Shown piece by piece: positions 5,981-56,378 of a DNA stretch of 64,000 bases. Location of the stretch: positions 128,001-192,000 of the forward strand of contig JALHMH010000002.1 in NCBI GenBank assembly GCA_022844165.1, given 5' to 3'. The stretch's first letter is position 1. Each line of letters opens with the position of its first letter. Below the pieces are notes generated by a model. It was not told the DNA's origin. It worked only from the letters and a program-made list of their open reading frames with translations, and did no database searches. Both the position numbers and the translations under genes were made by a program. This DNA is from Lysobacterales bacterium. GTDB lineage: Bacteria; Pseudomonadota; Gammaproteobacteria; Xanthomonadales; SZUA-5.

Positions 5981-7459
5981 ATGCACGCCCCGTACGCCGC
6001 GATATCGCTCAGCCATCTGCATGCCGGGCGCGGTCCTTGTGTGGCTGGTTCTATCCGTCTGTGGGTGGGCGCGTGGCTCGCATTGAGTCTGACCTGCGCT
6101 CCTGCGATGGCGGCGGATGTGGTGGTGGTTTCACTTGAGGACACGGGCGCCGGGACGTTGCGCAACGCCATCGCGGAGGCAGTCGCGGGCGATCGCATCG
6201 TATTCGCGCCAGGGCTCGCGGGCACGATCAGCCTGAACTCGACCCTGACCATCGGCCGCGATCTGATCATCGAGGGCAATGGCAACATCGAGCTGGACGG
6301 CAGGGACACCTCAAGGGTGATCACGATCACCGGCGGGCAGGTGGATTTGCGGCGTCTGGTGGTGCGCAACGGTTTCGCAACCGATGGTGGCGGGATTGCC
6401 AGTGCAGGCACCCTGCGGATGAACAACTGCGTGGTGCGCAACAACAACGCGAGCGCGCGCGGTGGCGGCTTGTTCATCAGTGCGGGCAGCTACAGTCTGG
6501 TCGACACCACCATTGCCGACAATTTCGCGACCAATGAAGGTGGCGGCATCGAAGACCTGGGCACTGCGCCGTCAACCATCACGCGGGGCCGCATCGTCAA
6601 CAACATCAGCTCCGGCGCAGGCGCCGGCATCCGACACGTGTCGAGCCAGGAACTCACGATCGATCACAGCACGATCTCCGGCAACACGGCAGCGACCACG
6701 AGCGTCGTCATTGGCGGCGGCATTGCCAGCCAAGGCGCGACGCTCAACATCAACTACAGCACGGTCTCCGGCAATAAATCGCATTTCGGTGGCGGCATCT
6801 ATGTGGCAAATCTTGGCGCGTCAACGAAACTCAACCTGATCGGCAGCACAATCACTGGCAACACGGCCGTATCGGATGGTGGCGGTCTGTTCGTGTTCGG
6901 TGCAGGGGCGACGCTGATCAATTCGACCATCGCCAACAACCTTGCGGGTGCCGGGACGGGCGGCGGTTTGTCAATTCAGAACTCCGGCCCGGGCACGGCA
7001 ACGGTCATCATCAACAACAATACGATTGCGTTTAATCGCTCGAACGCCAATGGTGGTGGTATCACCGCAATCTCCGGCTCGCTGAGTCTCAAGAACACGC
7101 TGATTGCCGGCAATATCAGTGGCACCAACGCAGACATCCAGGGCGCATTCGTCTCGGAGGGATTCAATCTGGTGCAGACGCGTGGCACCAGCTCGGGCTA
7201 TGTTGCGTCGGATCTGGCCAATGGCACGCTGCCGCAGCTGGCCACACTGGGATTCAACGGCGGTCCAACACTCACCGTATTGCCGAACACCGGCAGTCCG
7301 GCGATCAACGCGATACCCTCGTCCAACTGCGCGGGCATCGCGCTCGATCAGCGCGGCTACAATCGTCCTGCGAATCAATGCGACATCGGCGCGCTGGAAG
7401 TCGGCGCTGCACCACCGGCGCCGCCTGTTAACCAAGTGTTTCGCGATGGTTTCGAGTAG
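5981..7459 (+). CDS. Secreted parallel beta-helix protein (CSLREA-like N-terminus, choice-of-anchor Q-like C-domain) ending in VFRDGFE
   Basis: Signal-like segment ending APAMAA; DTGAGTLRNAIAEA; many GGGI/GGGL and N-x-A repeats; NGGPT, GSPAINA, DQRG, CDIGALE; Pro-rich linker. Start codon uncertain. Confidence 0.9.
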   Translation: MHAPYAAISLSHLHAGRGPCVAGSIRLWVGAWLALSLTCAPAMAADVVVVSLEDTGAGTLRNAIAEAVAGDRIVFAPGLAGTISLNSTLTIGRDLIIEGNGNIELDGRDTSRVITITGGQVDLRRLVVRNGFATDGGGIASAGTLRMNNCVVRNNNASARGGGLFISAGSYSLVDTTIADNFATNEGGGIEDLGTAPSTITRGRIVNNISSGAGAGIRHVSSQELTIDHSTISGNTAATTSVVIGGGIASQGATLNINYSTVSGNKSHFGGGIYVANLGASTKLNLIGSTITGNTAVSDGGGLFVFGAGATLINSTIANNLAGAGTGGGLSIQNSGPGTATVIINNNTIAFNRSNANGGGITAISGSLSLKNTLIAGNISGTNADIQGAFVSEGFNLVQTRGTSSGYVASDLANGTLPQLATLGFNGGPTLTVLPNTGSPAINAIPSSNCAGIALDQRGYNRPANQCDIGALEVGAAPPAPPVNQVFRDGFE

Positions 7460-7485
7460 GCTGCGTCGGTGAAAACCGACGAAGC
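7460..7485. terminator. Hairpin immediately downstream of the beta-helix gene
   Basis: CGTCGGT-GAAA-ACCGACG stem-loop; no U tract. Confidence 0.45.
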
Positions 7486-7499
7486 GTAAAGATGATTGC

Positions 7500-7650
7500 T
7501 GGCCATGCCCGATCACGTGGCCTGATTCTCGTGAGCAACAACCTTGCAAATTCGAACGCGTCCGGGGTCGACGCTATTGACGCCGCCTTCGCTTGTGGCG
7601 CTGTTCGTCACAAATGCGGTGCTCACGATGGTCTGGTTCGACACCGCGCC
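7500..7650 (-). pseudogene. Remnant of beta-helix (Pmp-type) repeats
   Basis: Minus strand reads NQTIVSTAFVTNSATSEGGVNSVDPGRVRICKVVAHENQAT*, resembling SLVDTTIADNFATNEGGGI in the neighbouring gene; in-frame stop. Confidence 0.4.
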
Positions 7651-7652
7651 GC

Positions 7653-7677
7653 GCGCCAGCTGGCGAGCAGCTGGCGC
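7653..7677. terminator. Hairpin downstream of the 7699-9429 gene
   Basis: GCGCCAGCTG-GCGAG-CAGCTGGCGC, a perfect 10-bp stem. Confidence 0.5.
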
Positions 7678-7698
7678 AGCGCGCAAGGTCCGATGCGA

Positions 7699-9429
7699 CT
7701 ACTCGAAGCCATTGGCGAAAAGTTCGGCATTCGCTGCCGCCAACGCCCACGACAGGCCGTCGCTGGTGCGGTGTTCCCAACCCCACATCCGCCAGGGGAA
7801 TACGCGAAATGCGGCACGCCCAGACTGCGGAGACGTAGGCTCAATCCAATAATTGACGCCAAGGTCGTAGGTGCGATAGAGCGTGGCAATGGTGCTCTGC
7901 AACGCAGCATCGCGTTGTCCGAGCATGGCGCCGAAGTAATCGGCCCAGGCCAGCGCTGCAGCCACGTCGAGCGAATGTTCTTGGTCATGGATCGCCGCCG
8001 TGCCTGCAAAATCGGTTCCGTCATGTTCGATGACGTAACGCGGGGCGAGCAAATTACCACCGTAGAAACTGCTCTGCGTGCGTAGCGCGGCACTTAGGAA
8101 CGTGCCGCTGCGGCGAATCATTTGCGCCGTTGCAGTGTCCTCGGCAGTGGCATAGGCGCGGCGCAAAGCATCGGTTAGAAGCGCGGTCATCCAGGTCGAT
8201 GCGCCATACGCGGCCGGGTCCCAATCGCCGTGTTGCGCGCCAGTGTGGTACCAGCCGCCATCGATGCGCGGACTGGGGATGCCTGGCAATCCGTTCTGAT
8301 GCGCAGAAAGACTCTGGATCATGGCGTCAACGTTGCTGCGCCGCGCGACACTGCCCGTCACTTCATAGTCGATGGCATGTGCATTGAGCTTGAAGGCCAC
8401 CGCGCGCTCGGTCCAGAAACTCAAAGCTGCCGTCCATGCGTGCGCCGTGCTGTTGTGCGCGTTGGCCGTGGCAGTGATTGGCGCCAGAAAGGTGTCGTCG
8501 CCGGTGAGCCAAAACGCGTATGCCAACGATTCGTTGAACGAGTACTTGGTATCACCCGCATTGAGCGAGAACCTGCCGCTGGCGTTCAGTTCCTTGCGGT
8601 AGAAATCGGCGTGGCGCAACGCTTCGCGCAGCGGCTTGAGATGACCGCTCTTGAGGTACAACGCAAACATCGTCGCCGCACGGTCATAGAGCCAGGGTTC
8701 GAACGCAGTCTTGTATGGGCATTGATTTGCCACCGTCACATTCGGATCGTCCTCGTTGATCACGGTGTAGAAATTGTTCTTCATGGCACGCTCGGCCTCC
8801 TGCGTGCCGGGCCACGTGGCAATGTTGTCCATCGCCTGCGGATCGTCGCGTGCGGCGCCGTTGCTGGCGTCGAACGGCAAGGTTTGCGTCGTCCGCAGCA
8901 CGCCCTGCGCCAGCCACGCGGCGGGCATCGTGGCGATCACGCGCGGCTCCTGGACGCTATCAGCCGCAAGAAAGCTTCCGCTGCTCACAGCACTCCAGGT
9001 GCTCGCGCGACCGACGCGCGCCGGGCGAGTGAGCGTGCGCGCCACGCCGCCGTACTCGACAACAATGCGTTTGGCTTGATTGACATTCGCGAAGCTGACT
9101 TCGATCTGCACCAGGACGACGCGAACAGATGCGCCATCGATCGCTGCATTGTTGCGGTGACGCCACGGCGTCAGTACCGCCACATAGGCCGGAATCTCGA
9201 CGCCGCCGTCCAGCACGCGCACACTGCTTAATGCACTCGGCGCCAGTGAGCCACGCGCGAGCGGCACGCCGAAGCTGGCAACAACCGGCTGATTCGCTTG
9301 CACAGAAATCGGGTGCAGATCGACTGCGACGCTCGCCACCGGTTGCGCCGGCGCGAAGAACGGTTCGGCCGCAGAGCAGGAACTGACGCACAGCCAGAAC
9401 CACAAACACCGAAACGCGTTCATTGCCAT
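7699..9429 (-). CDS. Secreted hypothetical protein: YetA/PcRGLX-like N-terminus and probable alpha/alpha-barrel; ends in LFANGFE
   Basis: Signal peptide; PVVASFGVPLARGSL; helical, aromatic-rich C-half (EPWLYDR, AFWLTGD, YEVTG). Confidence 0.75.
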   Translation of the reverse strand: MAMNAFRCLWFWLCVSSCSAAEPFFAPAQPVASVAVDLHPISVQANQPVVASFGVPLARGSLAPSALSSVRVLDGGVEIPAYVAVLTPWRHRNNAAIDGASVRVVLVQIEVSFANVNQAKRIVVEYGGVARTLTRPARVGRASTWSAVSSGSFLAADSVQEPRVIATMPAAWLAQGVLRTTQTLPFDASNGAARDDPQAMDNIATWPGTQEAERAMKNNFYTVINEDDPNVTVANQCPYKTAFEPWLYDRAATMFALYLKSGHLKPLREALRHADFYRKELNASGRFSLNAGDTKYSFNESLAYAFWLTGDDTFLAPITATANAHNSTAHAWTAALSFWTERAVAFKLNAHAIDYEVTGSVARRSNVDAMIQSLSAHQNGLPGIPSPRIDGGWYHTGAQHGDWDPAAYGASTWMTALLTDALRRAYATAEDTATAQMIRRSGTFLSAALRTQSSFYGGNLLAPRYVIEHDGTDFAGTAAIHDQEHSLDVAAALAWADYFGAMLGQRDAALQSTIATLYRTYDLGVNYWIEPTSPQSGRAAFRVFPWRMWGWEHRTSDGLSWALAAANAELFANGFE

Positions 9430-9777
9430 TCTCCGACCCCCAATTCGCTCAGGACAATTTTGCTAGACGGATTGCCGGGCCAATGTGCGCCATCGCGCGT
9501 ATCGCACCGTTCGGGAAACGCACGGCGGGCTTCCCGTTGCATACTGCCGTCGACAGGTCGGGCATCAGTCCCAATTGGCGTAGATCGTGCGCCATCTCGT
9601 CGGTGAAGTGGCGTTCTTCGGCACGCACTGCCTGCGGCGCTCGGTGCAGACCTTTCGCGACTTCATCAACGCGCACCGTTTGCACTTCATGTTTGTAGCC
9701 GGAGAACGCAGCGGATGTCACGCGGCGGCAAGCCGGTGCGGCGGGCCTCTCGCAATAGCGGACGCACTGGATGTGCG

Positions 9778-10809
9778 TCAGGACGCCCGCGGCGGTTGAC
9801 AGCTATCGCGCACCACGAGGTTTGGTCGAATGCTGACGGGCAGGGCCGGCCGATTCTGGAATTCGGCGAGCAGCAGCTCGGCCGCCTTACGCCCGACTTC
9901 GCGAACCGGGAGGCGGACGGTGGTCAAGGCCGGCCACAACTGGGCGGCCAATGGACTGTCGTCATAGCCGATGACAGATACATCGCCGGGGACCGTCAAA
10001 CCGCGCCGCAGCGCGGCTTTGTAGATGCCCGCCGCCATTTCGTCGTTGGCGGCGAAGATCGCCGTTGGGCGCGGTATCTGCGCCAACAACGCGTCGGCGC
10101 CAGCGACGCCGGATTCGAAGGTGTAACCGCCCTCATACTCGAGGTTCGGCGCCAATTCGATGCCTCGTTCTGCAAGTCCCTGTTTGAATCCTTCGCCGCG
10201 TTCGATAGCCGATCGGTAGCGCTTGGGCCCGGTGATCAAACCGACGTGCCGATGGCCGAGCGATTGCACGTAATGCGCAGCTTCGATGCAGGCGCGCCGA
10301 TCGTGGGTGTGTAAGCGTCGCGATGGTTCGTCGAGTTCGATGGACGCAATTCGAACGTAGCGGCATTGCTCTTCGATCAGCATCTGCGACAGCGAGGCAT
10401 CTTCAGATACACGCGGCACCAGAATCACGCCATATAGTCGCTGCCGCCGGACGAACTGGCGCACACCCTCGACGTAGTCGCTGCGGCGACTATCCGAAGG
10501 GTGCACGACCAGCTCAAATCCTGTGCCGGCCAGGGCGTCCAGTACGCCATATTGCATGTTGACGATGTATTGGGCGGTTGGATTGTCGAACACCAGGCCT
10601 ATCAGGAACGAATGGCGAAACGCCAAACCGCGGGCTTGAGGATCGGGTGCGTAGTCGTGTTCGCGCATGAGCGCGAGCACTTTTTCGCGCGTGTCGTCGC
10701 GCACCAGCGGCGAATGGTTGAGTACCCGAGAGACGGTTTTTTTCGACACCCCCGCGAGACGCGCGATGGTGTTGATCGTGGCCTTTTCGGTTTTGCTGGC
10801 AGGAGGCAT
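9778..10809 (-). CDS. LacI-family transcriptional regulator of the pectin/uronate locus
   Basis: ATINTIARLAGVSKKTVSRVLN HTH; AIFAANDEMAAG; VIGYDDS; ALTTV. Start could be 10818. Confidence 0.95.
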   Translation of the reverse strand: MPPASKTEKATINTIARLAGVSKKTVSRVLNHSPLVRDDTREKVLALMREHDYAPDPQARGLAFRHSFLIGLVFDNPTAQYIVNMQYGVLDALAGTGFELVVHPSDSRRSDYVEGVRQFVRRQRLYGVILVPRVSEDASLSQMLIEEQCRYVRIASIELDEPSRRLHTHDRRACIEAAHYVQSLGHRHVGLITGPKRYRSAIERGEGFKQGLAERGIELAPNLEYEGGYTFESGVAGADALLAQIPRPTAIFAANDEMAAGIYKAALRRGLTVPGDVSVIGYDDSPLAAQLWPALTTVRLPVREVGRKAAELLLAEFQNRPALPVSIRPNLVVRDSCQPPRAS

Positions 10810-10876
10810 GCGCGCCATTGTAGCGATTGCCGCGTGCCGATGCTCCCGAAGGATCGAGCCGCTGGCGCTTTGCCGC

Positions 10877-12154
10877 TTAAAGGCCCGGCAGCCACAAACT
10901 CAACGATGGCACCAGCACAACCAAGAGCAGTACCGAGAGTGCCGCCAGATAGAACGGCCAAATACTGCGTAGCGCCTGTCCGACACTGATCTGACCGATG
11001 CCGGCCCCAACAAACAACACCGAACCCACCGGCGGGGTGATCAGGCCGATGCCGGCGGTGAGAATCAACACAACGCCGAAGTGCACGGGCGAAATCCCAT
11101 AGGCCTGCGCAACCGGTAAAAAGATCGGCGTGCAAATGATGATCATGGGCGCCATATCCATGAACGTGCCGAGGATCAGTAATGCCATGACCATCAGCAA
11201 CAAGACTGCTGTCGGCGAATCGGCGACGCTCTTTAGGGCTGCGACGGTTGCCGCAGGCACTTGCAAATACGCCAGCAACCATCCGAACGCGGCGGCCGCA
11301 GCGATCACGAACAAGATCACGCCCGTTGTGCGCACCGCGCCGCTGAGCATCTGCATGAATGCGCCTGGCGACATCTGCCGATACACCAGTGTCGCGATGG
11401 CCAGTGCGTACAGCACCGCGATCGACGCGCTCTCCACGGCGGTAAAGATACCGGCGCGGATGCCGCCGAGGATGATCAAAATCAGCAGCAGGCCGGGGAG
11501 CGCCGCAATCAAACACCGAAGCACAGTGCGAGCGCCGGGAAACACTTCAGTACGGTAGCCGCGACGCCAGGCCAGTACGTAAGTGGTTGCCATCACGGCA
11601 AGGGTCAGCATGATGGCAGGCACGATGCCGGCTGCGAACAGTTTCGCGATGGACACGCCGCCGCCTGCCGCTGCCGAGTACAAGATCAAGTTGTGCGACG
11701 GCGGCACCAGGAGCGCTACTAATGCAGCCGTGATCGAAACATTCACCGCAAAGTCAGCATCGAAACCGCGCTGTTTCATTTGCGGAATCATCGTGCCACC
11801 GATTGCCGAGACATCCGCGATGGCCGATCCCGACACGCCGCCGAACAGCATCGACGCCACCACATTCACTTGCCCCAGTCCGCCACGCATGTGGCCAACC
11901 AGGCTCGTCGCCAGTGCGATGATTCGGTCCGACAATCCGCCGCGCAGCATGATCTCGCCGGTGAGAATGAACAAGGGGATCGCCAGCAGCGTGCTGGCGT
12001 TGGCACCGGCCGCCAGCTCGATGACCAGCACCAGCGGCGGCAATCCGAGATAGATGATCGTCGCGAGCGATGCGGTCGCCAGCGCAAATGCCACAGGCAC
12101 ACCCAGAGCGAGCAGAATGAAGAAGCTCAAGAACAGTAGCGCGGTGGCCGGCAT
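10877..12154 (-). CDS. dctM: TRAP transporter large permease
   Basis: Hydrophobic 425 aa; AIPLFILTGEIM, GGVSGSAIAD, LVPPS, GLITPPVG. Confidence 0.95.
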   Translation of the reverse strand: MPATALLFLSFFILLALGVPVAFALATASLATIIYLGLPPLVLVIELAAGANASTLLAIPLFILTGEIMLRGGLSDRIIALATSLVGHMRGGLGQVNVVASMLFGGVSGSAIADVSAIGGTMIPQMKQRGFDADFAVNVSITAALVALLVPPSHNLILYSAAAGGGVSIAKLFAAGIVPAIMLTLAVMATTYVLAWRRGYRTEVFPGARTVLRCLIAALPGLLLILIILGGIRAGIFTAVESASIAVLYALAIATLVYRQMSPGAFMQMLSGAVRTTGVILFVIAAAAAFGWLLAYLQVPAATVAALKSVADSPTAVLLLMVMALLILGTFMDMAPMIIICTPIFLPVAQAYGISPVHFGVVLILTAGIGLITPPVGSVLFVGAGIGQISVGQALRSIWPFYLAALSVLLLVVLVPSLSLWLPGL

Positions 12155-12163
12155 TCGTTGCTC

Positions 12164-12616
12164 CTAAAGTCGTAACCCGCGCTCGAGCGCGAATCCAGCC
12201 ATCAACGCGCCGCCCAAAACCAGCGGCAGATAACGCGCGCCTTCGGGCAGCAGCGTGCCGGCCAACAGCACGTCCCGATCGGACCAGAACAGGATGGCGC
12301 CACCGATGGCGAGCAACAGGCCAAGCGCAACGGCGATCACCAGGGCGAGGCCATTGAGGACGCGCTGCGCCAAAGGCGATAGTCGTTCGCTCAACAGCGA
12401 AAAGCGAAAGTGAGCATGGCTGCGCACACCCAGCGCGGCAGCGCACATCATCGTCGTGTTCATCAGCAGCAGCGCCAGCGGCTCGGTCCAGCTCGGCGAG
12501 TCGTTCAGCAGGTATCGGCCGAACACTTGCCAGGACTGGACCAGTACAATGCCGAGCAGCGAGACCACGCAGAGCCACAGCGTGAGTCGCGCCACGAGGT
12601 CGCCAGCTTTGCTCAT
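12164..12616 (-). CDS. dctQ: TRAP transporter small permease
   Basis: Four TM segments, QVFGRYLLNDSPSWTE; ATGA overlap with the dctP stop. Confidence 0.92.
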   Translation of the reverse strand: MSKAGDLVARLTLWLCVVSLLGIVLVQSWQVFGRYLLNDSPSWTEPLALLLMNTTMMCAAALGVRSHAHFRFSLLSERLSPLAQRVLNGLALVIAVALGLLLAIGGAILFWSDRDVLLAGTLLPEGARYLPLVLGGALMAGFALERGLRL

Positions 12617-13590
12617 GCCAGATCCCGGATGGTCGCGTACAAGGGTGCCAGCTCGCCGCGGCCGACTTGGGCGAGCAACGGTTCCACCGCACGCGTGAAA
12701 GCTTCGCGATCGATCACCGTTTCCACCACGCCGCTGTCGAGTGCCTTTTGCCTTGCTGCCGCCAGGGCCTGATCCCATGCGGCACGCATCACGACGACCG
12801 AACGCTGCGCCAGATCGCGAATCAACTCGCGGTCGCCGGGCCTAAGTTGTGTATCGATGGTGGCCGAGAGCAGGAGGACATCCGGCACCATCGAATGTGC
12901 ACTGCTCGACCAATGATGGGCGACCTCAAACTGGCGGCTGCTGACAAAGCTCATCCAGTTGTTTTCGGCGCCATCGATGAGGCCGGTTTGCAGGGCCGAA
13001 TACACCTCGCCGAATGCCAGTGGCGTTGCGTTGACGCCAAAACTGCGCATGATCGCCAGGAACACGTCCGACGCCGGGACGCGCAGTTTCAAGCCTCTCA
13101 GATCATCGGGCGCGGCGATTGCGTGTCGCGTGTTATAGATGCCGCGGTAGCCCGCATCGTAGAAGCACAAAGCGATTTGGCCGCGGCTCGACAGGTGGGT
13201 TAAAAGTTGCCGCCCGGGCGCGCCGTCGAGGGCGCGGCGCAGGTGCGCTACATCGTCGAACACATACGGCAACGACAGTAGCGCGGTATCGGGAAACGCA
13301 TTGTTGAGCGCGGCGATGGTCACACGCGTCAGCGCCAGGGCGCCGTGCCGGACCAAGGTCAATGTGTCCGCCTCGCGTCCGAGTTGACCGGCGGGATAGT
13401 GCAAGAGGCGCAAACGACCGGCGGTGAGTCTCTCCAGCTCCGCGCCCAGCCACTGCACCGCCATGACCGTCGGATATCCGGCGATATGCACGTCGGCGCC
13501 GCGCAGAACAGTACCCGACGAGAGCCGGTCGGACATCGCGGGAAGCGCTGCCATGCCGGCCATTGTGGCGAGTGCGTTGCGGCGCTTCAT
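12613..13590 (-). CDS. dctP: TRAP substrate-binding protein with Tat-like signal
   Basis: MKRRNAL; DLRGLKLRV; FGEVYSALQTGLIDGAENN. Confidence 0.95.
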   Translation of the reverse strand: MKRRNALATMAGMAALPAMSDRLSSGTVLRGADVHIAGYPTVMAVQWLGAELERLTAGRLRLLHYPAGQLGREADTLTLVRHGALALTRVTIAALNNAFPDTALLSLPYVFDDVAHLRRALDGAPGRQLLTHLSSRGQIALCFYDAGYRGIYNTRHAIAAPDDLRGLKLRVPASDVFLAIMRSFGVNATPLAFGEVYSALQTGLIDGAENNWMSFVSSRQFEVAHHWSSSAHSMVPDVLLLSATIDTQLRPGDRELIRDLAQRSVVVMRAAWDQALAAARQKALDSGVVETVIDREAFTRAVEPLLAQVGRGELAPLYATIRDLA

Positions 13591-14399
13591 GCCGAGCGTG
13601 CCTCGCAATGCAATACGGTGCCGCCGGTAAATTCCACCCGCGCCCGCTCGCCAATCCGGATGTCGTGGATGCCGGTGCTGGCACCGGTGGACACCAGATC
13701 GCCGCGTCTGAGCGGCCTGCCGCGTCTGGCGTTGCGTTCCAGCGCGAAAATCAGCGCCGCGAGCGGACCGCCGCTGATCGATGTTGCGCCACCGCGGCCT
13801 ACACTTCGCCCTCCGATGAAGGTCTCGCAGAACAAAGATGGCCAGCTTTGCTGCCAGTCGTCGACCTTTGGGCCGACCAACAAGCCAGCGTTGTTTCCGA
13901 AGTCGGACACCACGACCGCTGGACCGAGTTCATTGATGCTCGCCAGCGGGCTGCCCGCAAATTCGATGCCCAGGCGCATACATGCGGCGAGTGTGCACGC
14001 GTCGTCCAAGGAAAAGTGCCGCTGCGCCGGATCGACATCGACGGCAATTTCGAAAATGTACTCGGCCTCGACCGCCGCAAAGCCGCCCGGAATCACGCGC
14101 AACAGGCCTCGGTCGCCAGGCGAGAGCCGTTGAACATTCTGCCGGAAGATTGGACCGACCAGCCGTTCTTCGCCGAGCCGATCGCACCATGCATCGGGGA
14201 TCTTCCCGACCTTCCAGCCCACGATGGCATCTGGCCAAAGCGCGATGGCCGCGTCTTGTCGCGCATAAGCCGCGTCAAGCGAAGCCGGCAGCGAACCTGG
14301 ATATGCCGGCAAAGCGGTCGCCGTCTGGCGCGCAGCGACAAACTGCCTGGCAACTTGCATGGCCGACTCGGCAGGGGCGGGGCTATTGTGCAGGGTCAT
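13587..14399 (-). CDS. FAH-superfamily, 2-keto-4-pentenoate hydratase-like protein
   Basis: AAYARQD, VGWKVG, VEAEYIF, LRRGDLVSTGA. Confidence 0.88.
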   Translation of the reverse strand: MTLHNSPAPAESAMQVARQFVAARQTATALPAYPGSLPASLDAAYARQDAAIALWPDAIVGWKVGKIPDAWCDRLGEERLVGPIFRQNVQRLSPGDRGLLRVIPGGFAAVEAEYIFEIAVDVDPAQRHFSLDDACTLAACMRLGIEFAGSPLASINELGPAVVVSDFGNNAGLLVGPKVDDWQQSWPSLFCETFIGGRSVGRGGATSISGGPLAALIFALERNARRGRPLRRGDLVSTGASTGIHDIRIGERARVEFTGGTVLHCEARSA

Positions 14400-14433
14400 T
14401 CTCGTTCGCGTTCGAATGGAAGTAAGATATAAA

Positions 14434-14448
14434 GGAAACCGGTGTCAT
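14434..14448. promoter_or_regulatory. LacI-type operator, copy 1 (ATGACACCGGT on minus strand)
   Basis: GGAAACCGGTGTCAT in the divergent hydratase/pectate lyase gap; same 11-bp core at three other promoter positions. Confidence 0.8.
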
Positions 14449-14458
14449 TTTCAACGAG

Positions 14459-46644: not shown

Positions 46645-46713
46645 CGTTTCGGGGCAATAACTCGGCGCACTCACGCTATAGTCTTGAGACCCTTTTCAGA
46701 GCGAGCGTCAAAC

Positions 46714-47628: not shown

Positions 47629-47647
47629 GCTGGCATAACCCGTTCCG

Positions 47648-47674
47648 AACGAAGGCCAAGGCCGGCCTTTGTTT
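47648..47674 (+). terminator. Probable terminator after ilvE
   Basis: AACGAAGGCC..GGCCTTTGTTT. Confidence 0.5.
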
Positions 47675-47750
47675 GCGGCACGAGTGAACCCGCTCTGAGT
47701 TCCCCTCCCTCCCCCGAGATCGGCCTGACCGAAGCGCAACTCAAAAATCC

Positions 47751-48038
47751 ATGGCACTGCCTGCTTCCACGTTGCACCACATCGCGCAGCTATCGCGTCT
47801 GAAAATCGAGCCACAGCATGAGGCTGCGATGGCGGCTGAAATGGGCGCCGTACTGCAATTGTTCGAGCAGTTGGCGAAGGCGCCGGTCGACATGCTGGAG
47901 CCTTTGTCGCACCCCGGCGATCCAGCACTGCGGCTGCGCGCAGACGTCGTAACGGAAGTGGATCAACGAGCGAACTTCGAGCGCGTGGCGCCGTCGATGA
48001 TGGGCGGTTATTACCTGGTCCCGAAGGTGATCGAATGA
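47751..48038 (+). CDS. gatC: Asp/Glu-tRNA amidotransferase subunit C
   Basis: [22 protein letters not shown]. Confidence 0.95.
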
Positions 48039-49477
48039 GTCTTGCTGCGCTGCTCGCAGGACTCGACAGTGGCGCGATGTCTGCGCGCGGAGCGACCGAA
48101 GATGCCTTGTCGCGAGCAAGCCGCGCGGCAGGTCTGAATGCGCTGATCACGCTGACCGCGGACGCAGCGCGCGCTGCCGCCGAGCGTGCCGACGCTGCTC
48201 GCGCGATGGGCGCACCAGGTGAGCTGCTTGGTGTTCCCTATGCGCACAAGGATCTTTTTTGCACGCTGGATGTGACGACGACTGCCGGCTCAAGAATGCT
48301 GGCGAAATTTGTCCCGCCCTATAGTGCGACGATTCACGAGAAGCTCGATGCCAGCGGTGCCGTGCTGATCGGCAAAGCGAACATGGATGAGTTCGCGATG
48401 GGCTCGTCGAACGAGCATTCCTACTTCGGTGCGGCCCGCAATCCCTGGGATCCTGATCGGGTTCCCGGCGGGTCGTCCGGCGGTTCGGCTGCCTTGGTTG
48501 CAGCGCGGATCGTGCCGTTTGCGACCGCCTCCGACACCGGCGGATCGATTCGGCAACCGGCGGCACTGTGTGGCGTGACGGGCATCAAACCCACTTACGG
48601 CCGGGTGTCGCGCTACGGCATGATCGCTTACGCGTCCAGTCTCGATCAGGCTGGGGTGATTGCCACCAGCGCCCACGATGCCGCGTTGGCACTCAGCGTG
48701 ATCGCCGGTTTCGATCCGCGCGATCCTACGAGTGTCGATGCGCCGCCCATCGATGTGTCTGACGCACTGTCGATGTCGCTCGCCGGTTTGCGCATCGGCA
48801 GGCCTCGGCAGTGGTGCGGCGAGGGAATCGACTCGGGCGTCGCAAACGCTGTGGACGCGGCATTGGCGATCTACGCCGAGCACGGTGCGCGCATTGTGGA
48901 TATCGACCTGCCCTCCAGCGAGCATGCGATAGCAGCCTATTACGTGATCGCACCAGCAGAGGCGTCGAGCAATCTGGCGCGCTTTGATGGCGTACGCTAT
49001 GGGCACCGTTGCGCCCACCCTAAGGATCTCGCCGATCTTTACACGCGTTCGCGCGAGGAGGGCTTTGGGCACGAAGTGCAAAAGCGCATCCTGACTGGCA
49101 CCTATGTGTTGAGCGCAGGTTATTACGAGGCCTACTATCACCGCGCACTGAAAGTCCGTCGTTTGATCGCAAACGACTTTGCGCGTGCGTTCAATGAGGT
49201 CGATCTGATAGCCGGTCCGACCAGTCCGTGCGTGGCGTTCAAGTTGGGCGAAAAACTGGCAGATCCTGTGGCGATGTATCTGGCCGATGTGAACACTGTG
49301 AGCGTCAATCTGGCTGGATTGCCGGCGCTGTCGATTCCCTGCGGATTCTCCGATGGTTTGCCGGTTGGGCTGCAACTGTGCGCACCCTGGTGGCAGGAGT
49401 CCCGCCTGATCGGCGCCGCGCACGCGTATCAGCGTGTGACCGATTGGCATCGCGCATTGCCGCCGGGCATCGCGTAA
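48035..49477 (+). CDS. gatA: Asp/Glu-tRNA amidotransferase subunit A
   Basis: [37 protein letters not shown]. Confidence 0.97.
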
Positions 49478-49527
49478 ACCCGCCAGTCGAAAGCGCCACC
49501 CACCACCAATGACTAACCACCAACCCA

Positions 49528-50949
49528 ATGCTCGCAACGATCGGCCTTGAAGTTCATGTGCAACTGAACACCGCCGCCAAGATCTTCTCTGGCGCCGCGA
49601 CCGCGTATGGCGCTGAGCCAAACGCGCAGGCCTGCGCGATCGATCTGGGCATGCCTGGCACTTTGCCGGTCATGAACGCGGCGGCGGTTCGTTTGGCGGT
49701 ACGCCTGGGGTTGGCGCTCGGATCGACCATTGCACCGCGCAGCATTTTTGCGCGCAAGAACTACTTTTACCCGGATTTGCCCAAGGGCTATCAGATCAGC
49801 CAGTTCGAAGCCCCGATTCTGATCGGGGGTGGTATCGACATCCGTGTTGGGCAAACGAACAAGCGCATCGAATTAACACGAGCGCATTTGGAAGAAGACG
49901 CGGGCAAGAGCGTGCACGATGCTTTCCATCGCGAGAGCGGTATTGATCTGAATCGTGCCGGTACACCACTACTGGAGGTCGTCAGCGAGCCGGTCATCGA
50001 GAGCGCCGCCGAAGCGGTGGCCTATCTGAAGGCGCTGCACACGCTCGTGCGATGGTTGGGTGTGTCCGACGGCAATATGCAGGAGGGTTCGTTCCGTTGC
50101 GATGCCAACGTGTCCGTGCGCAAACCGGGCGAAGCGCTCGGAACCCGCGCCGAAATCAAGAACGTCAACTCATTCCGCTTTGTTGAAAAGGCCATCGACT
50201 ACGAAATCGAGCGGCAAATCCGGATCATCGAATCCGGTGGCAAGGTGGTTCAGGAAACGCGCTTATATGATGCGCAGCGCGACGAAACGCGCAGCATGCG
50301 CGGCAAAGAATCGGCGCACGACTATCGCTATTTCCCCGATCCCGATCTGCCGCCGCTGATTCTGGATTCGGCGTTGATCGAGACCGAGCGCAGTCGCTTG
50401 CCGGAACTGCCGAACGCCCGCCGCGAGCGTTACCAAGAAGATCTGGGCTTGTCTGAGTACGACTCAGCGCAGCTGACGCAAGACCGAGCCTTGTCCGACG
50501 CATTCGAATCGGTCATCGCCGCGAGTGCTGCGCCGGCGAAACTGTGCGCGAACTGGGTGTTGTCCGACTGGCAGGGTGCGCTGAATGCAGCAAACCTGAC
50601 GATCGATCAGTCGCCGTTGTCCGCGGAGCGTTTAGGCGGGCTGGTGACGCGTGTGCACGATGGCAGCCTGTCGAGCAAGATGGCCAAACAAGTCTTCGAA
50701 GCGATGTTTGCTTCCGATGACAGTGCCGATGCGGCGATTGCACGACTGGGTCTGAAACAAGTCAACGACATTGATGCGCTCGCGGCGCATGTCGAGGCGG
50801 TGCTCACCGAGAACACGACGCAGGTTGCGCAATTCCAAGCCGGCAACCAGAAATTGCTGGCGTTCTTCGTGGGCCAGGTGATGAAGCGCACCCAAGGCCA
50901 GGCGAATCCGGCCCAGGTGACGGCGCTGCTGCGCGACCGCCTGGGTTGA
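49528..50949 (+). CDS. gatB: Asp/Glu-tRNA amidotransferase subunit B
   Basis: [50 protein letters not shown]. Confidence 0.97.
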
Positions 50950-50976
50950 CCCCGTGCAGCACGCAAGCTGGTAGAG

Positions 50977-50991
50977 TGCAATCGTATACAG
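50977..50991. promoter_or_regulatory. LacI-type operator upstream of the second LacI gene
   Basis: TGCAATCGTATACAG, a CG-centred pseudo-palindrome matching 35226-35240. Confidence 0.75.
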
Positions 50992-51014
50992 TGCCGTTCG
51001 CGGCCAGCGGATAG

Positions 51015-52049
51015 ATGCACATGAAGGGCAAGCCGACCTCATTCGATATCGCATACAAAGCCGGCGTGTCGCAGGCCACGGTGTCGCGTGCGCTGCGCGG
51101 CTCGCCGCTCGTCAGCATTGAGACCCGGCGGCGCATTCAGGCCATCGCCAAAGAGATCAACTACAAGGTCGACAAAAACGCATCGGCCTTGCGTCGGCAG
51201 CACTCCGAGACGATCGCCCTGCTGTTGTTTGAAGATCCCACCAGCGACGACTCGCTGATCAACCCGTTTTTTCTGTCGATGCTCGGTTCAATCACCCGCG
51301 CCAGCGCTCGACGCGGTTACGATCTGCTGGTCTCGTTCCAGCAGTTCTCCGACGATTGGCACGCGGATTTCCAGGACAGCCACAAGGCCGACGGCATCAT
51401 CATGCTCGGTTACGGCGACTACACCGAGGCCCTGCCGAAACTACAGCGTCTGGTCGAACAAGGAACGCACTGTGTCCGCTGGGGCGCCATCGTCGATGGT
51501 CAGCCGGACGTCTCCATTGGCTGCGACAACGTGCAGGGCGGTTATGCGATTACGCAGCATTTGATCGAAATGGGTCGACGCAAGATCGCCTTCGTCGGCG
51601 ATGTTTCGCCGAGTTGCCCGGAGTTCGCAGCGCGTTATCGCGGACACTGTCAGGCGCTCGAAGACGCAGGGATCGTTGTGTGCGCCGATTGGCAAGTCGA
51701 GGCCCGCGATTCCACGGAGCCGGTGGGTGCCGAAGCCGCGCGGGAATTGATGCATCGCGATGCGCCGATCGACGCCATTTTTGCGGCCAGCGACTTACTC
51801 GCCATTGGTGCCATGCGCGCGCTGAACGATCGCGGCGTGCGTGTGCCGGAGGATATTGCGGTGGTTGGTTTCGACGATGTGCCGATGTCTGCATTCGCCT
51901 CGCCGCCGCTTACCACAGTTGCACAGGACAGCAAGCGCGCCGGCGAGTTGCTCGTCGACACGCTCCTGCAGCAAATTCAAGGGCAGCCCACCGCTAGCCA
52001 GATGCTGCCGGCGCGCGTGGTTGTGCGTCGCTCGTGTGGCAGCCGCTGA
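51015..52049 (+). CDS. LacI-family regulator, probably the maltose/alpha-glucan repressor
   Basis: TSFDIAYKAGVSQATVSRAL HTH; AIFAASD; VVGFDD; shares an operator with the MFS-amylase operon. Start may be 51021. Confidence 0.92.
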   Translation: MHMKGKPTSFDIAYKAGVSQATVSRALRGSPLVSIETRRRIQAIAKEINYKVDKNASALRRQHSETIALLLFEDPTSDDSLINPFFLSMLGSITRASARRGYDLLVSFQQFSDDWHADFQDSHKADGIIMLGYGDYTEALPKLQRLVEQGTHCVRWGAIVDGQPDVSIGCDNVQGGYAITQHLIEMGRRKIAFVGDVSPSCPEFAARYRGHCQALEDAGIVVCADWQVEARDSTEPVGAEAARELMHRDAPIDAIFAASDLLAIGAMRALNDRGVRVPEDIAVVGFDDVPMSAFASPPLTTVAQDSKRAGELLVDTLLQQIQGQPTASQMLPARVVVRRSCGSR

Positions 52050-52050
52050 T

Positions 52051-52357
52051 CTAGTGTGGTGTCACAAAAGTAAGGTGAACAATTTCCGCGCCTTTCGGCC
52101 CGAATGCTGCGTTGCTTTTAGCCCGTCGGCGCAGCCGCCGGTCGTTCGGTCGATCGCGCGGCATGCCGCGCAAGCCGATCGTCCTCACGGTCGCCATAGA
52201 AGAGCTATGTCGTCCGGCCCGGCGGCGCAGCCGCCGGTCGTTCAAGTCGGCTCGCGGCATGCCGCGAAAGCCACCGACTTTCATCCTCGTCGCGCCTTGC
52301 CTGACGCCGAAATCCATCGGAAACATTGTTCAACTTAATGACGGAACACCACACTAG
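52051..52357. mobile_element. MITE, 299 bp with TGT...ACA ends, flanked by CTAG
   Basis: Left CTAG|TGTGGTGTCACAAAAGTAAGGTGAACAAT versus reverse-complemented right CTAG|TGTGGTGTTCCGTCATTAAGTTGAACAAT; no transposase. Confidence 0.8.
52121..52272. repeat. Two ~55-bp direct repeats with palindromic cores inside the MITE
   Basis: GCCCG[T/G]CGGCGCAGCCGCCGGTCGTTC...CGCGGCATGCCGCG[C/A]AAGCC starting at 52121 and 52217. Confidence 0.85.
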
Positions 52358-52371
52358 CGGCCGCCACCGGG

Positions 52372-53865
52372 TCAGGTCATGAAGCCCAGATTCGGGCCCG
52401 AAATGGCCATCATCGGTCCGGTCATGAACTGCAGATTCGGGAAGATGTCGGCCCGATCGATATCCGACAATCCGTACCACGTGGCTAGCGTGGCCGCATA
52501 TTGATCCGCCGAGATCGTCGGGATGATCTGCCCGCCCCAGCCCGTATCGTCGGGGTTGTTATTGGCCTGTAAGTTGGGCATCCGGCCGAAGATGCGCCGA
52601 CCGTTGACGGCGTTGCCCCACACCAGGTGGTGGCCGCCCCAGCCATGATCGGTGCCGTCGCCGTTGTTGGTCAGCGTGCGGCCGAACTCGGAGGCTGTGA
52701 ACGTGGTCACGCTGCTGCCCAGCGCGAAGGTCGGGCTGTTCAGTACGTCGTAGAACGCCTGCACCGACTGCGACAAATCGCGCAATAAACCTGGGTGATC
52801 GGCCAATTGATTGTCGTGCGTATCGAAGCCGCCGATCGCCGCAAAGAACAATTGCCGCTGCATGTTTAATTGACTGGCGCCGCGCGCACGGATGACGCGC
52901 GCGATCATCAACAGCTGCTGCGCGAGTCGCGGTAGCTCTGGCGGATTGGTGGCGCTCCAGGTCAAGCCATTGCGCGTCCAAAACGGCTGGAACACTGCAT
53001 CGTTCGAGGGGTAGTTGGCGATCGCAGCGGCGACCTGTGCCGATGTGGCGATCGTCGCCTGAGTTTTGTTCACGTAGGCGCGCTCGAACGCATGGCCATA
53101 GGTCTGCGTTTGGAGCGCCTGGAACGTCAGGCAGCGGCGCCGATTCCAACCCTCCGGGCCATTGCAGTTGGCGCCGTTCGTGTTGATCGGCCAGATCTGT
53201 TCGACGCCATCGCTGCTCATGAAGTACGGCGATACTGACACGCCCGCCTGGAACACGTTTTCGCCGTCCAGGGAGACATTCATCGACAAGACTTGATTCG
53301 GATTGGTCGACGCGAAGATGTCCGCGAGACGGCCGCCCCAGCCGGTTCGAGCGCTGCTATCGGCGCGCGGCGTTTGCCACAGTACCGATTGATCCGAATG
53401 CGAAAACAACTGCGCGGGCAGCAGTGTTCCGGCTTGCTGATACAGCGTCTTGTTGGTCGGGCGAACGAGTGGGCCGGCGTTGGCGACAATGGCCATTCGC
53501 CCCGCCTCAAACATATCGCGCGCACCCGTCATGACCGGATGCAGACCATATTGACCGCCGTTACTTGGACCTGACGTTGGATTGATCGCCAGTAGCTGAT
53601 TTTGCGGCACCGCCAATGAGCCGCGGGTGGCCAGATAGGTCGCATGCCCGGCGTCGCGCGGCACAACCATGTTGAAACAGTCGTTACCGCCGTACAGATA
53701 AATGCAGACCAGCGCGCGATAGTCGTCGCCTTCGAGCCGACGAATACCGCCTGTGGTGGCGGCCTGCGCCAGTTCCATCTTGGCGAACATCGAAGTGAAG
53801 GCGGCACTGCCAGCAGCGGCGCACAGCGTCTTGTGCAGGAATTCGCGGCGACGAAGGATGCTCAT
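52372..53865 (-). CDS. DUF1501 family protein, Tat-exported
   Basis: RRREFL Tat motif; YRALVCIYLYGGND, LFSHSDQ, GGFDTH, SEFGRT, GTDHGWG. Confidence 0.93.
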   Translation of the reverse strand: MSILRRREFLHKTLCAAAGSAAFTSMFAKMELAQAATTGGIRRLEGDDYRALVCIYLYGGNDCFNMVVPRDAGHATYLATRGSLAVPQNQLLAINPTSGPSNGGQYGLHPVMTGARDMFEAGRMAIVANAGPLVRPTNKTLYQQAGTLLPAQLFSHSDQSVLWQTPRADSSARTGWGGRLADIFASTNPNQVLSMNVSLDGENVFQAGVSVSPYFMSSDGVEQIWPINTNGANCNGPEGWNRRRCLTFQALQTQTYGHAFERAYVNKTQATIATSAQVAAAIANYPSNDAVFQPFWTRNGLTWSATNPPELPRLAQQLLMIARVIRARGASQLNMQRQLFFAAIGGFDTHDNQLADHPGLLRDLSQSVQAFYDVLNSPTFALGSSVTTFTASEFGRTLTNNGDGTDHGWGGHHLVWGNAVNGRRIFGRMPNLQANNNPDDTGWGGQIIPTISADQYAATLATWYGLSDIDRADIFPNLQFMTGPMMAISGPNLGFMT

Positions 53866-53867
53866 GG

Positions 53868-55667
53868 TTACTTCTCCACCACATATTCAGGCGAGGTCAG
53901 GGTCAGCCACAGCGCATCCTGTACGCGGAAGCGCTGCCAGCCTGAACCCGAGTTGTTGTTGGTGATGTCGTTGATATGCGTGATCAGCAAATTGCGCATC
54001 GTGTTCGACATGCGGCCGTTCAAGAACAGCAGATTGTAGCGTTCGACCAATTCGGCCGGCTGGGTGGCCAATGCAAGATCGCGGTTGAGGTTGACCTGGA
54101 CTGGATCCCAGGTGCCAAGGTCGGGATTGCCCCACCAGGCCCAGTACACTTTGCCGCCGATCTCGTTGCTCAGGCGCGTGATGTAAGTGTCGGTGGTGAT
54201 TTGAAACTCCGGCGAGAACAAACCCAGCGTGGCAACTTCACCCGGCAGCTGATAATTCGGCAAGAAGAAATTGAATACAGTGGGTGAACGCTGTATCGCC
54301 TGGGCACCATATTGTTCGGCCCAGCCTTCTCGAATTCGGCCATCGATCGAACGCGCATCCAGCGCACGCCAAAGTTGCGTCACGCGGAGCAGCGGCTCGC
54401 GCAATTTGCCGCCATTGGTCGGCGCGGGAGAGCGGGCCTCGGTATCCATCAGAATGGCGCGAACCACCGCCCGCAGATCGCCGCGCACGCCGCTGCCATT
54501 GTTCGCAAAAACCGCGGCAACTCGGCCCACGTAGGCGGGCGACGGGTTGCTGGTGGTGAATCGCTGAATCAACAGTCGCGACAAGAACGGGCCGACGTTG
54601 GGGTGATTGAAGACATTGTTCAGCGCCGCCGTGAGATTGTTGCGCGCCGTGCCGCCGGCTGGCAAAACGCCGTTGGGAAGGGTCACGCCAGCGTAGTTCA
54701 ACAGTTGTTTGCTGCCTGCGCTCTCGTGGTAAATGTCGCCGAACGCGGTGCCTTCTCCCCACGGTTTCAACGCGGTGCGCCAACCTGGATGGCTGCGCCA
54801 GTCCTGGGTATCGGGGCCGGACGGGCAATATTCCCAATGCCACCAGTTGAAGCTCGGCGAACTTTCCGGTGCCACCGGTGGTGAGCAGGTCGAGTAGCTC
54901 CAGCCGGTGAAAACTTTGGCGAAACCGGCGATGACCGTTTGATCGTAAGAAGGCACCGTTTGAATGCCGGCTTGCCCTGCATTGCCATCCACGGGTGTGC
55001 CGTTCGGATTCAATTGCACCAGGCCAATCGAAAACAGCTGCATGATTTCGCGCGCGTAGTTCTCGTCGGGCCGGATGTTTTGCGCGGCGTCGGTCTTGCG
55101 GTTCTTGAACATCGACAGGTAGTGCCCCATCGATGGGTGCAATGTGATGTTTTCCAGAAGCGCACGGTAATTGCCAAAGGCGCCGCTGGCGAGGCCGTCA
55201 TAAAAATGGGCCATCGTGGTCGGATTGCCTTCGAGCGACCCGTTCTGATCGGAAATCACCAGGATCTGCGACAACGCGAAAGCCATACGCTGGCGTAGTT
55301 GATCGTTACCAGTGAGCACGTTGCGCCACCAGATTTCCTGGCGTTTGTCCTGCCACACTTCAATCGGTTGGCCGGCAGCTACGGCTTGTGCGATCAGTTG
55401 ATCAAGAAACGGCAACTGTTGCGACGTCGTGGCGGCGAACTGCTCGTTCAGCCACGCGTTGTAACCCATGCGATAGAGGCGATCGATCTCGGTCAGCGTC
55501 GGACCAAACGTTGCCTGGGTCAAAAAGCGCGAAGCCTGCGCTTTCGTATACGGGCCTTCTGCCGCCTCATCGTGACCCGTGGCAAAAATCGCATCCTGGG
55601 CGTCGGCGCCTGGGGATATCGACAAGCCGCAGATCAACATCAGGCCAACCACAAAACCGTTTCTCAT
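53868..55667 (-). CDS. DUF1800 family exported protein
   Basis: ASRFLTQATFGP, DQLRQRMAFALSQI, PDENYAREIMQLFSIG, TSNPSPAYV, GKLREP, SPEY. Confidence 0.93.
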   Translation of the reverse strand: MRNGFVVGLMLICGLSISPGADAQDAIFATGHDEAAEGPYTKAQASRFLTQATFGPTLTEIDRLYRMGYNAWLNEQFAATTSQQLPFLDQLIAQAVAAGQPIEVWQDKRQEIWWRNVLTGNDQLRQRMAFALSQILVISDQNGSLEGNPTTMAHFYDGLASGAFGNYRALLENITLHPSMGHYLSMFKNRKTDAAQNIRPDENYAREIMQLFSIGLVQLNPNGTPVDGNAGQAGIQTVPSYDQTVIAGFAKVFTGWSYSTCSPPVAPESSPSFNWWHWEYCPSGPDTQDWRSHPGWRTALKPWGEGTAFGDIYHESAGSKQLLNYAGVTLPNGVLPAGGTARNNLTAALNNVFNHPNVGPFLSRLLIQRFTTSNPSPAYVGRVAAVFANNGSGVRGDLRAVVRAILMDTEARSPAPTNGGKLREPLLRVTQLWRALDARSIDGRIREGWAEQYGAQAIQRSPTVFNFFLPNYQLPGEVATLGLFSPEFQITTDTYITRLSNEIGGKVYWAWWGNPDLGTWDPVQVNLNRDLALATQPAELVERYNLLFLNGRMSNTMRNLLITHINDITNNNSGSGWQRFRVQDALWLTLTSPEYVVEK

Positions 55668-55826
55668 GACCAGTTGCCTCTTTTTGCGGTTTCTTAACTC
55701 TTAAGCCAGTGTAGCGCTGCAATGGGTCGCCGTGTGTGACGGCTGTTGTTTTTCGACGACAAACGGCTTGATCTTCACGCCGGTCGGTCTAGGCTTGCCC
55801 AACTCTGAAAATCAGGGACGCGAACC

Positions 55827-56378
55827 ATGAGACGGTCGATCAGTGTTCTTGTGCTGTTGCTGGCCGCGAGCGATAGCTTCGGATTCTCGCTGGGTTCACC
55901 GATCTGCGAAGTCAACTCGTTGCCGCTCACAGAAATGAGCCCGACATTGGCCAGCCCGCCGCCGAGCGGGTGGACGTTGGAAACCGAGCGTGCTTACTTC
56001 TCGCCAGGCGCATCGCTGCGCGTGCGCGTACGGCATCCCAGCCCGCTCAAGCAGGCGCGGGGGATTTTGCTTTGGGCCAAACGATCGCAGTTCTTGGGCG
56101 GCGGCCGTTTCGAACTGCCAGCAAGCGGAGCGTTTCAGTATATTCCCGCCCCCGCAGCGTGTGGCGAATGGGCGATATCGCATGTCAACGCCACGCCGAA
56201 GTCGCTTGACGACTTGCAGTTCGACTGGATCCCTGACACCACAGCGCCGGTGATCCTCCGGGCCTTCATCATCGAAGAGTGTTTTCAACCCAGCGGCGGA
56301 TGCCGCGACCAGCAAGCGCTCACGCCCATCGTAGTCTTGGAGGAAGGCGTGCTGGTGAACGGGTTCGAGGCCGAATAA
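55827..56378 (+). CDS. Secreted Reeler-like domain protein ending in VLVNGFEAE
   Basis: Signal peptide, FSLGSPIC, RGILLWAK, AISH..PK, FDWIP; four Cys. Confidence 0.7.
   Translation: MRRSISVLVLLLAASDSFGFSLGSPICEVNSLPLTEMSPTLASPPPSGWTLETERAYFSPGASLRVRVRHPSPLKQARGILLWAKRSQFLGGGRFELPASGAFQYIPAPAACGEWAISHVNATPKSLDDLQFDWIPDTTAPVILRAFIIEECFQPSGGCRDQQALTPIVVLEEGVLVNGFEAE

Follow-up and report, generated by a model that had tools for sequence, protein, structure and literature searches.

The stretch of DNA analysed here, called the window throughout, comprises 64,000 nucleotides (C2:128001-192000) of a 4.68 Mb Lysobacterales genome with 60.5% G+C (G000). Three exported proteins encoded in it end in the tripeptide Gly-Phe-Glu (GFE), or two residues after it, and the sequence data indicate that this ending belongs to a genuine, selected and modular peptide tag appended to many unrelated Sec- or Tat-exported proteins. 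Its existence, enrichment and conservation, its presence on exported proteins in the slot of a sorting signal and its position outside the fold are directly supported. As to its role, we consider it about an even chance that the tag serves as a label for docking or sorting and that a single shared partner in the envelope or at the surface reads it as a linear peptide.

A nine-residue tail on exported proteins

Genes were called with our own crude codon-usage caller, which returned 3255 open reading frames (ORFs) of at least 80 aa and covered 84.5% of the genome. The expression [ILVFM][FVLIM]xx[GS]F[ED] lies within the last 12 residues of 75 of these ORFs compared with 2.2 expected from its overall density, a terminal enrichment of ~34-fold, and it was found in 10 of the 17432 rejected ORFs that served as the control. 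A proteome scan for the motif at termini, the check put forward in a sequence-only reading of the window that had noticed the common ending, thus gave strong enrichment. The logo of the 75 tails runs D (41/75), any residue, L/V/I (41, 18 and 10), F (55), A/R (36 and 12), N/D/S (41, 20 and 11), G (72), F (75) and E (74), with other residues (E, T, Y) only rarely accepted at position -3, and the consensus drawn from these sequences is the nine-residue D-x-[LVI]-F-[AR]-[ND]-G-F-E. Exactly at E end 54 of the 75 tails, and the remaining 21 carry 1-4 further, mostly polar residues; the earlier description of the motif as having no transmembrane (TM) helix or basic cluster behind it therefore holds genome-wide. 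The stricter expression [LIVMF][FLM]x[NDS]GFE matches 79 times across the proteome where composition predicts 1.4; 67 of these sites are terminal (at most five residues from the end), three lie right after a signal peptide and nine are internal. When the terminal tripeptides of the proteome were ranked, GFE came first, with 59 occurrences versus 21 for the runner-up.

The tag is concentrated on exported proteins. Our own crude signal-peptide script was positive for 54 of the 75 tagged proteins versus 811 of the 3180 untagged ones, which agrees with the proposal of a selective, lineage-specific tag on non-homologous exported proteins, and most of the 21 tagged negatives appear exported by eye. 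Within the window, 17 ORFs pass this test, and the Reeler-like protein is the only tagged one among them; the two other tagged ORFs fail it, yet look exported by eye. The three tagged proteins and their features are as follows.

5981-7459, + strand: exported right-handed beta-helix protein with a choice-of-anchor Q domain and a GFE tail (492-aa ORF; NCBIfam, AlphaFold)
7232-7402, + strand: choice-of-anchor Q domain, residues 418-474, immediately ahead of the tail (NCBIfam NF041518)
7430-7456, + strand: nine-residue tail NQVFRDGFE, then the stop codon (ORF; alignment of 28 homologues; AlphaFold)
7699-9429, - strand: exported 576-aa protein with a GFE tail (ORF; no Pfam or NCBIfam family)
7702-7728, - strand: nine-residue tail AELFANGFE, then the stop codon (fits the consensus of the 75 tails)
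55827-56378, + strand: exported Reeler-like protein with the diverged tail VLVNGFE plus AE (183-aa ORF; Pfam)
56349-56369, + strand: motif VLVNGFE, followed by two extra residues (AE) and the stop (ORF; AlphaFold)

The C-termini read PPAPPVNQVFRDGFE (5981-7459, + strand), AAANAELFANGFE (7699-9429, - strand) and EEGVLVNGFEAE (55827-56378, + strand), each followed by a stop, so the endings claimed for the three ORFs were correct, except that the second gene lies on the minus strand. No Pfam family is common to the three proteins, in line with their having been called non-homologous, and the 576-aa protein matched no family in Pfam or NCBIfam. The Reeler match of the third protein (PF02014) is borderline (E 3.9e-4, 21.4 bits against a cut-off of 21), and a precomputed PF02014 match is present in 12 of its 78 homologues. 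NCBIfam searches at E up to 10, with the full proteins and with their last 40 residues, gave no model for the tails, and the last 40 residues had no NCBIfam or Pfam match except choice-of-anchor Q.

The AlphaFold model of the first protein contains a beta-helix at residues 45-380 with a predicted local distance difference test score (pLDDT) above 90, as had been supposed from its sequence; at residues 467-492 the pLDDT falls below 50 and secondary structure is absent. In the model of the Reeler-like protein the final strand comprises residues 169-173, and residues 174-183 are without secondary structure. In both models the tag is thus an appendage and not a strand of the fold, the arrangement that would have spoken against an independent signal. 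The Pro- or Ala-rich linker that had been noted ahead of the motif does not recur as a rule among the 75 tails.

Conservation sets the tag apart from the sequence that precedes it. In the alignment of 28 homologues of the first protein (A2), G490 and F491 never vary and F487 and E492 hardly do, and the linker at residues 472-486 has no conserved column; this pattern indicates that the tag is under selection in its own right, apart from the linker. Among the 120 best homologues of the first protein, 30 match the strict expression, and of the 47 closest almost every one has the tag or a near-variant as its ending. More distant homologues have other endings: YLPLI[VM]R, TM-plus-basic tails, C-terminal domains (CTDs) of the type IX secretion system (T9SS) or RFYR[LV]xxP. 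The choice-of-anchor Q model matches the first protein with E 6.7e-16 and 58.3 bits (cut-off 25), and the GFE tail comes next, so the tag does occupy the slot of a sorting signal, as proposed: it directly follows this domain, and homologues carry other tails there. One of these, [RK]FYR[LV]xxP, is a recurrent short C-terminus in many distant homologues (P0049-P0107), two of which are source-named Verrucomicrobiota.

For the second protein, the motif lies at most 12 residues from the end in 83 of the 120 best homologues and at the very end in 54, most of the others have near-variants or an extension, and three stop without the motif just past a conserved ...LSWAM... segment. A stretch like LF-x-D-G-F-E stands at or near the end in 77 of 78 homologues of the Reeler-like protein by eye, and 30 of the 78 fit the strict expression. 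Between G000 (family f1) and G004 (family f5), 1608 of the 3255 G000 proteins have a homologue in the whole G004 proteome and 1128 pairs are reciprocal best hits; both members are tagged in seven pairs and neither in 1111, and five pairs carry the tag in G000 only and five in G004 only. In G004, the orthologue of the first window protein has a TM-plus-basic tail instead of the tag.

Non-terminal copies, extensions and distribution across the order

The motif is not confined to C-termini. With the strict expression it stands right after the signal peptide in three G000 proteins, and the four DUF1800 proteins examined from G000 and G004 all have it there too, in intact or degenerate form, which bears out the suggestion that it might also occur just after signal-peptide cleavage sites. 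Internal copies lie at domain boundaries in several multidomain enzymes. One of the DUF1800 proteins is encoded in the window beside the Reeler-like gene.

53868-55667, - strand: DUF1800 protein, divergent neighbour of the Reeler-like gene (Pfam PF08811, E 1.1e-76)
55566-55595, - strand: N-terminal motif-like DAIFATGHDE, residues 25-34 of the DUF1800 protein (sequence, orthologue comparison)
52372-53865, - strand: DUF1501 protein, partner of the DUF1800 protein (Pfam PF07394, E 2.6e-22)

The mature N-terminus of this DUF1800 protein, ...ADAQ-DAIFATGHDE, holds a degenerate form of the motif; the G004 orthologue reads RTIFESGFDE and a G004 paralogue PIFASGFE. In G004, non-terminal strict motifs on exported proteins are confined to its two DUF1800 proteins. 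The Reeler-like, DUF1800 and DUF1501 genes form a trio in the window (52372-56378) and are adjacent in G004 too (h1427, h1428, h1429).

Short extensions after GFE differ between lineages. In G004 there are six motif-then-stop matches in the DNA versus 20 tagged ORF ends, most of which carry a few extra residues, usually one small residue and then Pro (GP, SP or AP). In G114, none of 42 motifs is followed directly by a stop, 10 have it after one residue and 10 after two, the extension being mostly R; the corresponding numbers for 39 motifs in G120 are 3, 11 and 7, with mostly S. The added residues are lineage-specific and may co-vary with whatever reader the tag has. Because N-terminal and inter-domain copies and these extensions all exist, the tag appears to be read as a peptide and not as a fixed C-terminus.

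We then followed the tag through 249 genomes of the order, using genomes at least 90% complete for presence/absence contrasts. The DNA pattern F-x-[ND]-G-F-E-stop was matched in 158 of the 249 genomes, with up to 76 matches per genome against 0-2 for the reversed control, so the tag recurs in related genomes as the sequence-only reading had stated. This pattern undercounts, since in G004 it gives six matches against the 20 tagged ends noted above. Without the stop, the pattern gave no match in the tag-free genome G033, and its reversed control averaged 1.06 per genome with a maximum of 9; both DNA patterns include a few out-of-frame or internal sites. Of the genomes at least 90% complete, those with a stop-free count of at least 10 were classed as tag-rich (119 genomes) and those with at most 5 as tag-poor (92 genomes).

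The stop-free count is at least 10, and up to 126, in every sampled genome of families f1, f3, f4, f5, f6 and f9. It is also at least 10 in all but three genomes of f10 (genus g47 and one of g33), and the single genome of f11 has 11. In f2, 32 of 33 genomes have 0-5 motifs, the exception being G134 with 68, and f12 has 0-4 except for eight genomes with 17-57. Within f7, all 18 genomes of genus g14 have 0-6 and the other genera 8-41; counts in f8 range from 0 to 27. Such wholesale loss from lineages (f2, g14) is expected if the tags depend on one shared factor. Outside the order, the strict terminal tag stays at background (at most two per genome) in 298 genomes from ~240 families of the class, sampled as one or two genomes per family. 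As a multi-copy feature, the tag was seen only in this order among the genomes searched.

Role of the tag and candidate readers

We favour a docking or sorting role for several reasons: the tag sits in the slot of a sorting signal, orthologues exchange it for TM-type anchors, its G, F and E hardly vary, it tolerates different positions and short extensions, and whole lineages have lost it at once. Once the cargo has reached the periplasm, its flexible tail would be recognised as a linear peptide by one shared component of the envelope or surface. The N/D-G pair may give the tail a tight turn, and the task of the partner would be to retain or anchor the cargo or to pass it on. In this way the tag would fill the role that PEP-CTERM, IPTL-CTERM, T9SS or YLP-type signals have in other systems.

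Several points weigh against this role. A tag working without a dedicated partner would give the same sequence patterns. The gene and signal-peptide calls are crude, and counts across the compared genomes overstate the support, since these are relatives and not independent. In some orthologues the tag is lost or degraded and has no obvious replacement, which makes it dispensable for at least some cargo. Finally, none of the three genes profiled over the 249 genomes, namely a C25 peptidase, GspC and the control g573, tracks the tag well. The phylogenetic profiling that had been suggested for finding co-occurring machinery, applied here to these three genes, gave partial co-occurrence for GspC and C25 and a good fit for none.

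That no profiled gene matches the distribution of the tag is also what would be seen if it needed no dedicated reader and acted as an aromatic hairpin sticking to outer-membrane lipid or lipopolysaccharide (LPS), or as a cap against tail-specific proteases. The tag is small, with two Phe and one Leu/Ile/Val at fixed spacing, and its tolerance of N-terminal and internal positions and of short extensions fits such a role. However, the near-invariance of G, F and E (72, 75 and 74 of 75) and the Asp at position -8 (41/75) point to specific recognition, and the disappearance from whole lineages (f2, g14) is easier to obtain by losing one partner, although a changed LPS target would look alike. We regard action without a reader as unlikely, albeit the strongest of the competing explanations.

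Less probable still is that the tag is a type II secretion signal, by which folded periplasmic cargo is passed to a second, Lsp-like type II secretion system (T2SS) with scattered gspC-D, E, F and G-K genes and with the PDZ domain of GspC as reader. G000 has two T2SSs. One is an Xps-type cluster (T2SSM_b) that ends in the secretin (C3:209547-224014, L127); the other is a separate, scattered system (C16:22857-25919, L129) with a GspC (T2SSC plus PDZ)/GspD pair and with second GspE, F and G genes. A PDZ domain in this place would let a T2SS component choose a subset of folded periplasmic proteins, and the PDZ-bearing GspC goes along with heavy tag use: 108 of 119 tag-rich genomes have a homologue, versus 19 of 92 tag-poor ones (89/93 versus 19/90 in a first profile based on the strict terminal count). 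Within f2 it occurs only in G134, the one tag-rich genome of 33, and within f12 its eight strong matches are eight of the nine genomes with the strict terminal tag, the ninth (G140) having a single match. The gspC-D-E locus of G134 is syntenic with that of G000, so the second system looks ancestral and not imported. As a precedent, one report describes the EpsC PDZ domain of Vibrio cholerae as needed for a single substrate, VesB, and places the signal of this PDZ-dependent substrate in an immunoglobulin-like fold and not in a linear tail (PMC12369372).

The GspC association nevertheless fails in f8 and g14. No GspC homologue was found in eight f8 genomes from seven genera that carry 11-27 motifs, and a T2SSC family search in two of them (G007, G129) and a search for GspD2 orthologues in four (G007, G129, G019, G200) gave no match. 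Conversely, genus g14 retains GspC in 16 of 18 genomes at motif counts of 0-6. Moreover, the unrelated control gene g573 shows f2 and f12 contrasts like those of GspC. It encodes a 558-aa exported protein without a Pfam family (C3:222338-224014, L127:17338-19014) directly after the Xps-type secretin, with a homologue at most 2 kb from a secretin gene in the four other genomes checked (G134, G007, G054, G129). Homologues of g573 occur in 187 of the 249 genomes, in 116 of 119 tag-rich versus 36 of 92 tag-poor ones, and in one of 33 genomes in f2 (G134) and nine of 32 in f12. Since the control reproduces the f2 and f12 contrasts, those of GspC largely reflect shared ancestry; with both families excluded, GspC is present in 99 of 110 tag-rich versus 17 of 36 tag-poor genomes. 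Nor does the tag resemble a canonical PDZ ligand, which is bound by its free C-terminus. There is no free carboxylate in fixed register, as 21 of 75 tails in G000 are extended by 1-4 residues and none of the 42 motifs of G114 is directly followed by a stop, and N-terminal and internal copies fit such binding no better. PDZ-bearing GspC systems are common in other Gammaproteobacteria, and the background level of the strict tag in the 298 genomes sampled from the rest of the class likewise speaks against a T2SS signal. Taken as the reader, the GspC PDZ domain with its second T2SS is therefore weakened by the tagged f8 genomes without GspC and by the contrasts of the control gene.

GspC itself varies between lineages, with a deletion of 4-6 residues in the loop ahead of the PDZ 'GVRL' strand in f7 and in G186. 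By the strict count, the short loop appeared to go with tag use, but the idea was dropped because genus g29 combines this loop with 13-41 motifs. When GspC (residues 50-304) was co-folded with choice-of-anchor Q plus the tail, the ipSAE was 0.00 in both runs, which, made without control runs, carry no weight either way.

More doubtful again is that the motif is a site of cleavage or transpeptidation, at which a PorU- or gingipain-like peptidase of clan CD (C25) cuts after N/D/S, frees G-F-E and attaches the cargo to a surface glycan as in the T9SS. G000 encodes two large PorU-like C25 proteins, C25 is present in 75 of 119 tag-rich versus eight of 92 tag-poor genomes, and cutting would make sense at the domain boundaries at which internal copies of the motif are found. 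Against this, position -3 accepts E, T and Y, though rarely, and C25 was not found in 44 of the 119 tag-rich genomes, among them all four of f5, both of f6, 16 of 18 of g33 and G134, whereas seven of the 18 tag-poor g14 genomes have it. We therefore rejected a PorU-like C25 peptidase as an obligatory partner, as it is neither necessary nor sufficient.

The idea that the tail is no functional unit at all, but a chance likeness, the last strand of each fold or a gene-calling artefact, could appeal to the diverged motif of the third protein, which directly abuts the last strand, but it is effectively refuted already by the terminal enrichment, by the reversed DNA pattern, by conservation across orthologues and by tails that are of low confidence and strand-free in two models.

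Two further candidates for a partner were discarded. DUF1800 is present in 201 of the 249 genomes (14/33 in f2 and 28/32 in f12) and thus does not discriminate, and a 906-aa lipoprotein encoded beside PilQ was not found in the f8 genomes G007 and G129. No untagged neighbour of tagged genes was found to recur in both G000 and G004.

Relation to known signals and wider meaning

To explore how the tag relates to described systems, we compared it with known C-terminal signals. Like the tripartite signals (PEP-CTERM/exosortase, IPTL-CTERM, GlyGly-CTERM/rhombosortase, MYXO-CTERM/myxosortase and LPXTG/sortase), it is found on dozens of unrelated exported proteins in a single genome, at their very C-terminus, and it follows directly on a choice-of-anchor domain, where it is interchangeable with such signals among homologues. 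Unlike them, it has no TM helix or basic cluster, is usually followed by nothing and occurs also at N-terminal and internal positions. We know of no cognate enzyme for the GFE tag. G000 also has at least six tripartite tails of the IPTL/IPVN type (motif, hydrophobic helix, RR; for example g18, g140, g294, g1018, g1268 and g1473), so two kinds of C-terminal signal coexist in this genome. The YLP-type ending, seen in the distant homologues of the first protein that end in YLPLI[VM]R, is likewise very short, TM-less and in the same slot; its sequence, however, is unrelated, it belongs to other lineages (sources name Chloroflexi-type organisms), and no YLP-type model matched the three tagged proteins or their last 40 residues in NCBIfam at E up to 10.

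With the T9SS the tag shares periplasmic cargo without a TM tail and the presence of PorU-like C25 proteins in many tag-rich genomes. In contrast to the tag, the T9SS CTD is a folded domain of ~80 residues; the conserved part of the tag is nine residues long, as short as had been claimed, and unstructured in the models, and the presence of C25 does not track it. The beta-signal of outer-membrane proteins has a terminal aromatic residue (F/W/Y), whereas 54 of 75 tails have a terminal E with F penultimate, and one cargo is a beta-helix. Substrates of type I secretion lack an N-terminal signal peptide, while 54 of the 75 tagged proteins pass our crude test for one and most of the others are positive by eye. 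A full-text literature search returned no paper with FANGFE or FADGFE, and the matches listed for DGFE, NGFE and 'GFE motif' (25 of 141) were irrelevant; searches on C-terminal sorting and exosortase returned only known sortase-type systems.

Tagged genes in G000 often adjoin paired genes for an extracytoplasmic function (ECF) sigma factor (TIGR02999, Sig-70_X6) and a Ser/Thr kinase, as at C55:16062-19446 beside the tagged gene C55:19619-21923. At most two genes from a tagged gene lie 11 of 33 kinase paralogues (Fisher p 2e-5) and seven of 16 sigma paralogues (p 1e-4), against a background of 247 of 3180, which suggests that the tagged secretome is under local ECF/kinase control. Separately, the genome contains eight near-identical genes (~220-400 aa) that end in ...GIGYAR[SR]LVTG (C3:488-1475, C3:22287-23274, C28:58687-59668 and five more); they look like a repeated, probably mobile gene family.

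To our knowledge, the C-terminal signals by which Gram-negative bacteria sort proteins are of two kinds, tripartite tails anchored in the membrane and folded domains, so a bare nine-residue tail on 60-120 proteins per genome would be a new way to label exported proteins. Going beyond docking or sorting as such, we tentatively entertain, as possible but not probable, that an undescribed, order-confined pathway of envelope sorting or retention uses the GFE tail as its address label, a signal that is TM-less, nine residues long, tolerant of position and read by an unrecognised machine. In the boldest version of this reading, the tail would be the first linear signal handing folded periplasmic proteins to a T2SS. 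The choice of substrates for type II secretion or surface retention is an old open question, which a short transferable tag would make directly testable; a bench test is feasible, because the sources of homologues include the cultured species Dokdonella fugitiva and Aquimonas voraii. A further possible use is as a small fusion tag with which to secrete or display proteins. In the bacteria themselves, which are abundant in soil and water, it marks a large group of hydrolases and adhesin-like proteins, secreted or at the surface, that is easy to predict.

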